From NCBI GenBank assembly GCA_021813125.1, contig JAKALT010000005.1:107-64106 (forward strand): a DNA stretch of 64,000 bases, written 5' to 3'. Below the pieces are notes generated by a model that saw nothing but the letters and a program-made list of their open reading frames with translations, was not told the DNA's origin and made no database searches. Both the position numbers and the translations under genes were made by a program. This document shows positions 2,000-4,808 of this stretch, piece after piece. Source of the DNA: a bacterium (GTDB lineage: Bacteria; Patescibacteriota; Microgenomatia; Curtissbacterales; GWA2-41-24). Positions within the stretch are counted from its first letter, which is position 1; every line of letters starts with the position of its first letter.

Positions 2000-3817
2000 A
2001 TGGTTGGGTTTTCGGAAACAGTAGAAAAAAGACAAGTTCCCCCAACAGAAAAATTACATCCCAAGGATTTTATAGATGCTGACGGAACACAGCGGCAACT
2101 TTTTACATTTGAAACTAAATCAGGAAATCAAGTAGGGGCAGTTTTCTACTCAAAAGAAGATTTACCATTTAATGCCGAAATAGTTCGTGGTAAGCAGGCA
2201 TTTGTTTTTGGCGATAAACCAAATTTTAGAGATGAAACAGAATGGAGAGATTTTTTACAGGATTTATCAGAGGCTTCAGACAATAAAGATCCTTTAAATC
2301 GACAAACTATAAAGGTCAACGATGCTGTATCTTCCAATAACGCAGTTATATTTGTAGAAAATACACCAGTTAACATTTTAGATTTAGCATTTGTTTTAGG
2401 GGCTGAAGGAAAGCATCTAAGAGACGCAAGAAAACAAGCGAGTCAAATGCAATACACGGATGAAGTTTTATCACTGATAGACGACATGGTTGCAGTTTCA
2501 ATAATTGGTGAAGACGGTAAGGTTAGGCACCGTGAAGACCAAATACCGGAAGCATTAACTGTACTAAAAATACTGGCTGACTCCGCTGCGATTCACGAAA
2601 TTCAAAAAAGAAAAAAGGTTGTTGATGATTTAGACAGAGAGAGAGCAGGTGAGAGGCAAAGGAAGTTACATGAAAGATACGAAGAACTAAGGTTAGAAGG
2701 TGTTGTGCCAGCAAAAGATTATAGAGTTTATCATACAACAAGATACAAACCGAAAAAAGTTGAAGGCGGTTGGGAAATACAAACAACTTACGATGCCACC
2801 GGAGGGAAAACTTTGGTTGATAGCATCCACTTCAATCCAAATCAAGCCGTAGACTCGCACATCGGAGGTAGTTGGGATGATGCTGAATATGTAATAGATG
2901 CCAATTTAAAGGATATTGTAATGGGAAATAGAGATAATGCCAGGCTTAGGACGATAAGTCCTTTTGACATTTATTTTACTGTCTCTCCTGGTAGGAGATT
3001 ATTTATCCCGCGAGGGCATCTGACCAGGCCTGGATCACTAGAAGCAGGCTTATTTCAAAAAGATATCGATGACGAAACAGTTTATAAAAAAGGGACACTT
3101 TTGCCTCAAGAAATAGACTCTTTTCTTTCAAAACATTGGCATTCTGATAAAGATGACTGGAGAATAAAAAGAGAATTAGAAGACGGGGCGTTTAGTGCTC
3201 TTTATTACAAACTTCCGGAGAAGGAAAGAATTGAAATGGGACCAGATTCGGAGTTCAGAGCAAACTTTCAAGATTTTATAGAGAACTGGAATTTGGATGA
3301 ATTTTTTAGGTTATGCAGAACAGACGGGATAAAAGTTGCAGTTGAAGAGGCTTTAAAAGGCTACAAAAATATCCATGATATAAACGATACGCAGGCAATA
3401 ATAAAAAAAGTTAACGAGTGGTTTATTACAAAAATCAGAAACAGGAGTATGTATCCCTCTCCACAGATGGCTTGGGGGCAAGGTAATGATCAACGTATTG
3501 AAATGCTAGCCTGTGAACTTGGCGCACGTTTTGATTCGACCATGGAAGCCCATTTTCATGAAAATTTTGTTGGGTCTATTGGATCGATCTATCATCTATT
3601 TAAACGAGTTGCCGAACGTAAAAAATATTTTTCAGGTTCAAATGCAGATTTAGAATACTCAAATCCTAATTGGATGTACGATGACGAATCACAGAGTCCA
3701 CTTAATCCTAATAACCGCGAAGAGGTAATGATCCGTATTAGAAGATTTCGAAAAAGATATAGTTATGATGACGACGTTAATTTAAGACGTATGAATTTCC
3801 TTGCAGGAATTTTGTAG
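2000..3817 (+). CDS. Hypothetical protein (605 aa), no recognisable domain; first gene of cassette 2
   Basis: Long uninterrupted ORF between repeat copies B and C; followed 125 bp later by a zeta-toxin-like kinase. Confidence 0.5.
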   Translation: MVGFSETVEKRQVPPTEKLHPKDFIDADGTQRQLFTFETKSGNQVGAVFYSKEDLPFNAEIVRGKQAFVFGDKPNFRDETEWRDFLQDLSEASDNKDPLNRQTIKVNDAVSSNNAVIFVENTPVNILDLAFVLGAEGKHLRDARKQASQMQYTDEVLSLIDDMVAVSIIGEDGKVRHREDQIPEALTVLKILADSAAIHEIQKRKKVVDDLDRERAGERQRKLHERYEELRLEGVVPAKDYRVYHTTRYKPKKVEGGWEIQTTYDATGGKTLVDSIHFNPNQAVDSHIGGSWDDAEYVIDANLKDIVMGNRDNARLRTISPFDIYFTVSPGRRLFIPRGHLTRPGSLEAGLFQKDIDDETVYKKGTLLPQEIDSFLSKHWHSDKDDWRIKRELEDGAFSALYYKLPEKERIEMGPDSEFRANFQDFIENWNLDEFFRLCRTDGIKVAVEEALKGYKNIHDINDTQAIIKKVNEWFITKIRNRSMYPSPQMAWGQGNDQRIEMLACELGARFDSTMEAHFHENFVGSIGSIYHLFKRVAERKKYFSGSNADLEYSNPNWMYDDESQSPLNPNNREEVMIRIRRFRKRYSYDDDVNLRRMNFLAGIL

Positions 3818-3942
3818 AAAAACTCTATATGTCTGACAGAAATTTGTTGATGTAATGCCGGAAAAGGGCAGAAAAAAGGAATATATAAAATTACTGTAGA
3901 TGGTGGGTCATAAATCAGTTTCTGGATTGCTATAATTAGCTG

Positions 3943-4644
3943 ATGCCTAATAGTGATCTAGAAGAAAAAGCAAAGAAATGGGTTCGAGACAATACAAATA
4001 TTCTCATTGAAAAATTTGCTGACCCTGTAAAATTCCCTGGCGTATCTAATCCTTTCACAATTTTTATGGCTGGTTCCCCAGGTGCTGGTAAAACAGAATA
4101 TTCCAAGTCGTTTATAAAAGGCTACGATCCTAATACAAAAATCGTTAGGATTGATGCTGACGAAATTAGGGATATGATCCCAGATTACACTGGCGGCAAT
4201 GCTTATAAGTTTCAAGGGGCAGCCGCATTAGGAGTTGAAAAACTTTATGACCAAGTTCAAAAGAAGCATCAAAACGTTATTGTTGATGGAACTTTTTCTG
4301 ACTTTAAAAAAGGTCTTCAAGACGTTGAACGCGCCTTGCATAGGCATCGAAAGGTTGGTATTTTTTACCTCTACCAGGATCCTCTTATTGCATGGGAATT
4401 TACAAAAAAGCGAGAAAAAGTTGAAGGAAGGCATGTTTCAAAAGATATGTTTATAAGTTCATTCTTTTTAGCTAAAGAGAATGTGAATAAAGTTAAAAAG
4501 ATTCTCGGTGACAAAATTGAGCTTCATTTAGTTGAGAAGAATTATACAAATGAGCAAGAAAATACTAAGTTTAATATCGATATGATTGATAACCACCTAA
4601 AAATAAAGTATAATGAACAAGATCTGGAAAGGTTAACTAAATGA
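3943..4644 (+). CDS. Zeta-toxin-family / AAA-like P-loop kinase
   Basis: Walker A MAGSPGAGKTEYSK; zeta-toxin-like blocks IVRIDADEIRDM, NAYKFQGAA, VIVDGTF; 233 aa. Confidence 0.6.
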   Translation: MPNSDLEEKAKKWVRDNTNILIEKFADPVKFPGVSNPFTIFMAGSPGAGKTEYSKSFIKGYDPNTKIVRIDADEIRDMIPDYTGGNAYKFQGAAALGVEKLYDQVQKKHQNVIVDGTFSDFKKGLQDVERALHRHRKVGIFYLYQDPLIAWEFTKKREKVEGRHVSKDMFISSFFLAKENVNKVKKILGDKIELHLVEKNYTNEQENTKFNIDMIDNHLKIKYNEQDLERLTK

Positions 4645-4808
4645 AAGCACTTGATTTCTTGGTCAAGAAAGATAAAGGTACAAACTTCTTCGAACTACCA
4701 GCAAAAGAAAAGAAACGCATAATTAAAAAAGCGGTTCGTGGTTCGAACGAGTTGCAAAAAGAATTATCTAGGGAATACGCTAGATTAGCGGTACAAAAGG
4801 TGTTTTAA
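4641..4808 (+). CDS. Small 55-aa ORF overlapping the zeta-like kinase stop (ATGA), possible partner/antitoxin-like protein
   Basis: atg at 4641 overlaps TGA 4642-4644; translates MKALDFLVKKDKGTNFFELPAKEKKRIIKKAVRGSNELQKELSREYARLAVQKVF; below the 60-aa ORF-track cutoff. Confidence 0.35.
   Translation: MKALDFLVKKDKGTNFFELPAKEKKRIIKKAVRGSNELQKELSREYARLAVQKVF

Follow-up and report, generated by a model that had tools for sequence, protein, structure and literature searches.

A zeta-type kinase and a small basic protein encoded directly downstream form a mobile two-gene cassette, a candidate toxin–antitoxin or abortive-infection module of Patescibacteria and prophages

Zeta toxins are a textbook toxin–antitoxin (TA) family, defined by an epsilon or PezA antitoxin encoded upstream of the toxin. 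To which genes, then, does a zeta-like kinase belong when the gene upstream encodes a 605-aa protein and the gene overlapping its stop codon encodes a basic protein of 55 aa? The question is raised by a 64,000-nucleotide stretch of the genome of a bacterium of the Curtissbacterales (Patescibacteriota; assembly GCA_021813125.1, contig JAKALT010000005.1), hereafter the window, where the three open reading frames (ORFs) follow each other on one strand (Table 1). An earlier note, made from the letters of this DNA alone, had proposed that the three genes could make up an unusual TA or abortive-infection (Abi) system with the large protein as its sensor or antitoxin. The ORF list reproduces the three ORFs where the note had placed them, as well as the ATGA overlap of the last two, with the ATG of the small ORF at 4641-4643 and the TGA of the kinase at 4642-4644; the gap between the 605-aa ORF and the kinase is 125 nt and contains no ORF in that list. 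Our analyses separate what the note had joined. The kinase gene and the 55-aa ORF are a real, self-contained and horizontally mobile two-gene module, and the 605-aa protein is an unrelated neighbour. We consider it probable, though well short of certain, that the block at approximately 3922-4838 is a toxin-first, zeta-type TA or Abi-like cassette, self-contained and mobile, with a new family of small partner proteins.

The case for a unit of two genes begins with their linkage. Across a sample of 81 genome loci (the window and 80 fetched loci) and 45 viral loci from IMG/VR, a small ORF lies 3' of the kinase in 125 of the 126 (80/81 genome and 45/45 viral), including three loci, L063, L069 and L076, where the automatic filter missed it and it was seen on inspection. 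It usually starts at −4 (the ATGA overlap), otherwise at −7 or a few bases from the kinase stop, the first two positions accounting for most of the 81 loci. The sole locus without a small ORF, L075, has a truncated kinase as well, and no intact kinase was found without the small ORF among the loci examined. The two proteins have also diverged together, with a Mantel correlation of 0.68 that none of 2000 permutations equalled. No third gene is conserved near the pair, the next commonest cluster of neighbours being present at 10 of the 80 loci. A small partner in the downstream position, remarked upon by the earlier note as noncanonical, is the rule throughout this kinase family. The 55-aa ORF, whose conservation the note had left to be checked, is real and not a chance reading frame: besides its homologues directly downstream of the kinase in both samples, its ratio of nonsynonymous to synonymous substitution rates (dN/dS) against the copy in Curtissbacteria is 0.24, and NCBI, ENA and Logan records all have it as a called gene. 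For the kinase the same comparison gives 0.11, both values indicating purifying selection. The pair also shows a generic trait of type II TA systems, namely two small genes that are read in one direction, inherited together and independent of their surroundings on mobile or variable DNA.

The limits of the unit can be read from alignments. Against its nearest relative, a cassette in Candidatus Curtissbacteria (L007), the block shows 87% identity in DNA between unrelated flanks. The homology begins abruptly at (A)TTGCTATAAT, near 3922 and approximately 20 nt 5' of the kinase ATG, where the sequence shared by the two reads ATTGCTATAAT, and it ends approximately 30 nt past the stop of the small ORF, near 4838. 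Another relative (L150), whose kinase is 88% identical, has identical cassette boundaries, and the flanks differ even between cassettes with 91% kinase identity. Just inside the upstream limit lies an extended −10 element, TG-n-TATAAT at 3928-3936, which ends 6 nt ahead of the kinase ATG; the kinase of the window is without a Shine–Dalgarno sequence. The hexamer TAT[A/G]AT is kept in five of five close relatives, and in the whole genome sample a TANNWT box starting at −16 to −10 is found at 35 of 81 loci, a Shine–Dalgarno-like motif in only 3 of 81. Because the −10 box is 6 nt from the ATG and no Shine–Dalgarno sequence precedes it, the two genes are probably expressed from a promoter of their own as one leaderless, bicistronic mRNA. 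In the 45 nt of upstream sequence that were scanned, boxes resembling TGnTATAAT end 6–8 nt before the kinase start in many loci. The pattern suggests that leaderless expression may be general for the cassette and might even extend to other Patescibacteria genes.

The 10-mer TTGCTATAAT has two copies in the 64 kb, both on the plus strand, at 3927-3936 (the kinase promoter box) and 4949-4958 (expected 0.25; two occurrences were reached in 2 of 100 shuffles). The second copy is 140 nt past the small ORF and 6 nt before the ATG of a 13-codon hydrophobic ORF (MLKVGILIVLSLI); this copy could be what is left of the promoter of a further leaderless cassette, or a chance match. The region 3700-5200 holds no tandem repeats and no Rfam match, and on these grounds a type III or other RNA antitoxin was rejected.

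The 605-aa protein, by contrast, belongs to a family with an existence of its own. No homologue of it was found beside the kinase at any of the 80 genome loci or the 45 viral loci, nor beside the closest kinases (91, 88, 75 and 72% identity). Where the homologues do occur (loci L001-L006 and L157-L162), in eight independent contexts, they are single copies amid housekeeping genes with no kinase, their neighbours being FtsH/5'-3' exonuclease (three loci), L25, S18, YceG/RuvX and PPDK. A word-indexed search returned four homologues of approximately 35–37% identity and a profile search 466 cluster representatives (at 50% identity), mostly of approximately 500–700 aa and conserved mainly over residues 15–400. 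The protein has no match in Pfam, NCBIfam, PADLOC or PHROG, and no Pfam domain was found in the family members tested; its AlphaFold2 model is poor (predicted local distance difference test, pLDDT, 58.7), and neither PDB nor BFVD offers a fold that matches it. The 249-aa SWIM protein encoded upstream was tried as a conserved partner and rejected, as it is not similar to the gene upstream of the homologue in L002. Conserved and unannotated, the 605-aa family may deserve a study of its own.

That the kinase is zeta-like, as the earlier note had read from its Walker A motif, is upheld by both sequence and fold. The motif, MAGSPGAGKTE, occupies residues 42-52, and the Pfam family Zeta_toxin (PF06414) matches residues 34-186 with an E-value of 1.5e-33 and 116.4 bits against a gathering cut-off of 22.3; in NCBIfam, only weak matches to PSTK and PezT were found. 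The AlphaFold2 model is of high quality (pLDDT 93.2, predicted template modelling score 0.89), and in a Foldseek search of the PDB the first 15 ranks are taken by zeta (1GVN/3Q8X), PezT (2P5T), ng_zeta1 (6EPG) and AvrRxo1 (4Z8Q), with E-values from 1e-10 to 7e-6. The sequence identity to these top matches is only 11–16%. The note had named a better fit to a housekeeping kinase family as the alternative, and here the fold search sides with the zeta toxins: PFK-2, polynucleotide kinase (PNK) and PSTK all rank below them.

Phosphotransfer in these enzymes depends on the Walker A lysine, on D67 of zeta or D66 of PezT, on an E/D-G-T motif and on two arginines of the lid. Among 23 homologues of the kinase, the invariant residues are K50, R69, D71, D73, Q91, D115, T117, R130, R136, R157, E158, E161 and R163. 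In the profile alignment to PezT, D73 falls on the catalytic Asp66, D115-G116-T117 on the E-G-T motif and R157 on Arg157; the likewise invariant R163 is the second lid arginine by position only, the alignment to PezT stopping at R157. Set against the residue roles described for zeta and PezT kinases (PMC3062530), the phosphoryl-transfer site is intact, and the kinase looks catalytically competent. The substrate pocket is a different matter. Arg120 of zeta contacts the UDP phosphates of UDP-N-acetylglucosamine (UDP-GlcNAc) (PMC3062530), and its place is taken by Ser119 in the window kinase and by Ala in most homologues (EGTLRT in PezT versus DGTF(S/A)D in the sequence alignment); the equivalent of zeta Thr118 is retained as T117. 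As the Arg120 equivalent is replaced by Ser or Ala, the pocket appears unlike that of zeta and the substrate need not be UDP-GlcNAc.

The small partners share one plan. They are 43–71 aa long across all loci (43–67 aa at the 81 genome loci) and strongly basic, with an isoelectric point (pI) of 10.1 in the window, a family median of 9.9 and a net charge of approximately +6.5; they carry the motif FFxL..E(K/Q)K.I..A..(A/S)N..Q..L..Y. In the family alignment (A2), a basic N-terminal tail is followed by FFxL, (S/P)xxE(K/Q)KxIxxxA and (A/S)NxxQxxLxxY, with Gln39 invariant. By eye, the layout reads as an extended FFxL segment followed by two helices with an (A/S)N turn between them, which makes it loosely similar to a ribbon-helix-helix (RHH) fold. 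A profile search of a database of 5.8 billion proteins gave 296 clusters, all labelled hypothetical and without a Pfam domain. No relative was found in Pfam or the PDB, and no family, whether RHH, helix-turn-helix (HTH), AbrB or Phd, matched consistently across 38 members even at E-values up to 10, nor was any such match found in the PDB. The name of ribosomal protein S21, given to one member in a JGI record, was dismissed as there is no Pfam match behind the label. A Cys is present within the last 15 residues in 23 of 78 small proteins (for example, in L021, L030, L049, L050 and L077), and some tails are Cys rich (CQFCDCK, CCQCCGCK, CLRCGK), so that one subclade possibly has a tail that binds metal or is modified; the copy in the window lacks such a tail.

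The pair is widespread and travels. More than 1797 clusters of homologues were found for its kinase, which is present in at least 578 species-representative genomes, mostly of Patescibacteria of many classes. Elsewhere, the pair is found on the Shewanella plasmid pSA70-4, adjoining integrase remnants and with the small gene annotated as hypothetical, and in Fluctibacter corallii, beside a fragment of a transposase that by eye is of the IS256 type. The 45 IMG/VR contigs encode kinases of 32–48% identity to that of the window, all with the small ORF; at 24 of these loci, the 2.5 kb upstream hold the gene of a CI-type HTH/Peptidase_S24 repressor, which often adjoins the pair and is read in the same direction, and some other viral pairs are near Rha or Ant genes. 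The prophage pairs occupy the lysogeny-immunity region and are therefore probably expressed in lysogens; exclusion and Abi genes typically lie in that region. Close relatives of the window kinase adjoin a restriction–modification system, an McrB-like AAA_5 gene or DUF3800.

Some observations on these contexts are best kept separate. Several metagenome-assembled genome (MAG) records labelled "TPA_asm uncultured Gammaproteobacteria/Bdellovibrionales" carry taxon names that look unreliable: in L009, labelled uncultured Gammaproteobacteria, the region upstream of the kinase is near-identical to that of L011 from Candidatus Roizmanbacteria, as is the small protein. Because such third-party labels look unreliable, only the isolates, that is, Fluctibacter and Shewanella, should be used to gauge how far the pair has spread beyond Patescibacteria. 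A DUF3800 gene lies within approximately 3 kb of the pair in three contexts: the window, L096 (3826-4533, in a prophage immunity region) and L154 (4250-4888, in a Patescibacteria contig family). As a recurrent third partner it was rejected, since these are its only independent contexts and it is absent from the other approximately 120 loci; we take it as co-location in islands. In L007, the cassette has on either side a copy of a 29-nt direct repeat, TAAGGTGACAGATATCGC(C/G)GAGGT(T/A)CAAG, which occurs at 5883-5911, 6939-6967 and 9073-9101; the repeat is part of an element of approximately 100 nt, has no Rfam match and recurs in its third copy 2.1 kb further on. Between the second and third copies are genes for a pair of 78-aa and 165-aa proteins (the latter PIN-like by eye) and a tRNA-Arg, and after the third copy are two ORFs that by eye resemble an XRE-HTH and ImmA/IrrE-type (HExxH) pair, so that the region resembles a series of TA-like cassettes with the repeat between them. 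As a general border of the cassette, the repeat was discarded, being absent from the window and all other loci.

How might such a cassette work? In the reading that we favour, a promoter with an extended −10 element right next to the start codon would give rise to a leaderless bicistronic mRNA. The first gene would provide a zeta/PezT-fold kinase, the presumed growth-arresting effector, which would be toxic by phosphorylating an essential metabolite of the nucleotide type, UDP-GlcNAc being one possibility. The second gene, coupled through ATGA, would provide an obligate partner of 55 aa, most likely a protein that binds and neutralises the kinase, a regulator or both. Spreading among Patescibacteria chromosomes, proteobacterial prophages and plasmids, the cassette would serve for addiction or for the exclusion of phages. 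The history of inactivation in the family, the kinase having been lost recurrently and the partner kept, fits an effector that is costly and a partner that protects from it. Lesions inactivate the kinase and leave the small ORF intact in six cases: a TAG immediately after GKT in L010, N-terminal stops in L032, nonsense mutations in L101 and in L132, a frameshift in the P-loop in L133/134 and an internal deletion in L135. Since L101, L133/134 and L135 share one small protein, these represent three different lesions within one prophage lineage.

Several points weigh against a TA or Abi-like cassette. The asymmetry of the lesions is statistically weak, seven lesion types all falling in the larger gene with a P of approximately 0.2 by target size, and some of the kinase lesions could be assembly errors. 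With Arg120 replaced by Ser or Ala, the classical UDP-GlcNAc mechanism is not assured. At 50–90% identity among Patescibacteria classes, the kinase is unusually conserved for a TA toxin. No PADLOC model recognises the pair, zero families of PADLOC-DB v2 being matched by the kinase, the small protein or the 605-aa protein. Furthermore, the epsilon antitoxin is acidic, unlike the small protein here, which is strongly basic next to a kinase that is itself basic (median pI 9.9 and 8.9, respectively), and a basic partner would also fit a role in binding nucleic acids.

We regard as doubtful, yet worth a serious hearing, the possibility that the pair is an undescribed exclusion or Abi system of prophages and other mobile genetic elements in which the very basic 55-aa protein, rather than being a classical antitoxin, would serve as a nucleic-acid-binding sensor or adaptor gating the zeta-fold kinase, whose substrate would be something other than UDP-GlcNAc (e.g., a nucleic acid, tRNA or nucleotide cofactor); this would also explain why the kinase is so unusually well conserved in both Patescibacteria and Proteobacteria. 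Rather unlikely, in our judgement, is a non-toxic two-component enzyme, with the small protein as a DNA-, RNA- or tRNA-binding adaptor or a substrate-presenting factor and the kinase acting, like PNK or PSTK, on a nucleic acid or other macromolecule in repair, regulation or phage–host conflict. The charge of the small protein, the conservation of the kinase and the loss of the UDP-binding Arg of zeta would all suit it, and so would the profile of the kinase, which matches PSTK (1.1e-5) and Pnkp1 nearly as well as PezT (2e-6) and has a PHROG match to polynucleotide kinase (1.6e-6). The fold search, however, ranks zeta, PezT, ng_zeta1 and AvrRxo1 above PNK and PSTK, neither Pfam nor the PDB reveals a nucleic-acid-binding domain in the small protein, and the repeated inactivation of the kinase with the partner kept fits a costly effector better.

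The small protein might instead be a transcriptional regulator and nothing else, in the manner of omega in omega–epsilon–zeta, with the kinase controlled otherwise; EzeT, controlled by its own N-terminal helices, is an example of this. We think this improbable. The basic character of the protein, its loose likeness to an RHH of approximately 40 residues and the cassette's own promoter would all agree with such a role; no RHH or HTH family claims the protein, though, and its presumed strand alternates hydrophobic and acidic residues rather than polar and basic ones. Nor is an operator palindrome obvious by eye, with the reservation that the repeat scan (9-nt exact seed, 12-nt repeats) could miss a short operator, and in prophages the transcription of the pair often seems to come from the cI operon. 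Still more improbable, in our view, is a housekeeping kinase that is specific to the Patescibacteria lineage and has the small protein as its accessory subunit: its presence in at least 578 species-level genomes, the high conservation with a dN/dS of 0.11 and the many loci flanked by genes such as those for S12, EF-G and DnaK are what one would expect of it, but synteny is not conserved, the boundaries are sharp with flanks that differ even at 91% identity, the cassette occurs here in a low-GC island and elsewhere on a plasmid, in the immunity region of prophages and in Gammaproteobacteria, and pseudogenised copies exist. Finally, the three-gene toxin or Abi system, in which the 605-aa protein would act as sensor or antitoxin, has only adjacency and a shared strand across the 125-nt gap to its credit; given no co-occurrence at 80 loci or beside the closest kinases, the kinase-free contexts of the 605-aa family, and cassette homology that stops short of the 605-aa ORF, with a separate promoter box before the kinase, it is in effect refuted as a conserved arrangement and has next to no claim on our belief.

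The GC content is 0.32–0.38 across approximately 1-13000, versus 0.40–0.47 in most of the remaining window, and the low-GC stretch of approximately 1-13500 is probably an integrated element or a defence island. Genes for TIR, SWIM, DUF3800 and HEAT-repeat proteins and a serine recombinase fall within it, along with an HTH gene, and the earlier note's description of a defence-like island was a fair one.

Table 1. Positions of the genes, the cassette and neighbouring features in the window
Feature	Position	Strand	Evidence or remark
605-aa ORF	2000-3817	+	ORF list; adjacent gene, judged to lie outside the module; uncharacterised family
Conserved cassette block (promoter box, kinase, small ORF and tail of ~30 nt)	3922-4838	+	Alignments with L007 and L150
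Extended −10 promoter-like box TTGCTATAAT (TG-n-TATAAT)	3927-3936	+	Sequence and conservation in relatives
233-aa zeta/PezT-fold P-loop phosphotransferase, putative toxin	3943-4644	+	Pfam; AlphaFold2 and Foldseek
55-aa basic protein, ATGA-coupled, undescribed family, putative partner or antitoxin	4641-4808	+	Conserved downstream of the kinase
DUF3800 gene	195-770		In the low-GC island
SWIM protein, 249 aa	929-1678		Matches first ~95 positions of PADLOC candidate PDC-S62
TIR protein	5117-6154	-	Matches PADLOC PDC-S66 and ThsB
HEAT-repeat protein, 995 aa	6151-9138	-	4-nt overlap with the TIR gene
DUF4352/PHROG-806 protein	9591-10163		Sie-like matches
Large serine recombinase	11845-13491		Just ahead of YchF and S6

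Overall, our analyses remove a misleading three-gene hypothesis and leave a compact cassette of approximately 0.9 kb. One large branch of the zeta kinases, found in Patescibacteria, proteobacterial prophages and a plasmid, carries a conserved, unannotated basic protein of 43–71 aa downstream, a candidate for a new family of antitoxins or regulators. In prophages, the pair could be an exclusion module expressed by the lysogen, and it would join the few widespread accessory modules on record for the poorly understood Patescibacteria. In our search of the literature, no paper was found that describes the pair or links zeta toxins with Patescibacteria or the candidate phyla radiation (CPR).

Among known systems, the exclusion modules of prophage immunity regions, of which rexAB of lambda is an example, resemble the pair in position, given the CI-type repressor gene that adjoins it at 24 of the 45 viral loci, and are unrelated to it in sequence and fold. 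The closest structural match to the window kinase is provided by the UDP-GlcNAc 3'-kinase toxins of epsilon/zeta and PezA/PezT (template modelling score approximately 0.6–0.67), which share with it the Walker A Lys, the catalytic Asp, the E/D-G-T motif and the Arg aligned to R157 of PezT and which are likewise borne by plasmids and mobile elements. The identity is only approximately 13–16%, however, and Arg120 of zeta has become Ser or Ala. No epsilon- or PezA-type gene lies upstream, where the window has the 605-aa ORF without a Pfam match and the genes at the 80 loci are unconserved; the gene order is reversed, and the partner is half the size and basic. A survey of PezAT in 2023 reported PezT/zeta homologues with no recognisable antitoxin, having sought partners only among upstream genes (PMC10532202). 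In such an upstream-only scan, the present family would appear as one more set of orphan toxins, and yet it has a conserved partner on the downstream side.

The nearest parallel in layout is AvrRxo1-Arc1, a zeta-fold toxin with a small antitoxin encoded downstream (PMC4938570). The proteins themselves differ: AvrRxo1 of Xanthomonas and Acidovorax is a zeta-fold NAD kinase of approximately 420 aa with a role in type III secretion, against 233 aa for the window kinase, and Arc1 has 81–121 aa and the motif KExFD...(Y/L)ExxYY (PMC4938570), against 43–71 aa, a very basic composition and an unrelated motif in the partners described here. The fold of AvrRxo1 (4Z8Q) is nonetheless among the Foldseek matches of the window kinase (E-value 7e-6), and the likeness extends to the organisation of the locus: in both, the kinase gene comes first with that of its small, helical partner directly downstream, the flanks are variable and low in GC, and the toxin gene, or presumed toxin gene, has often been inactivated with the downstream gene left intact (PMC4938570).

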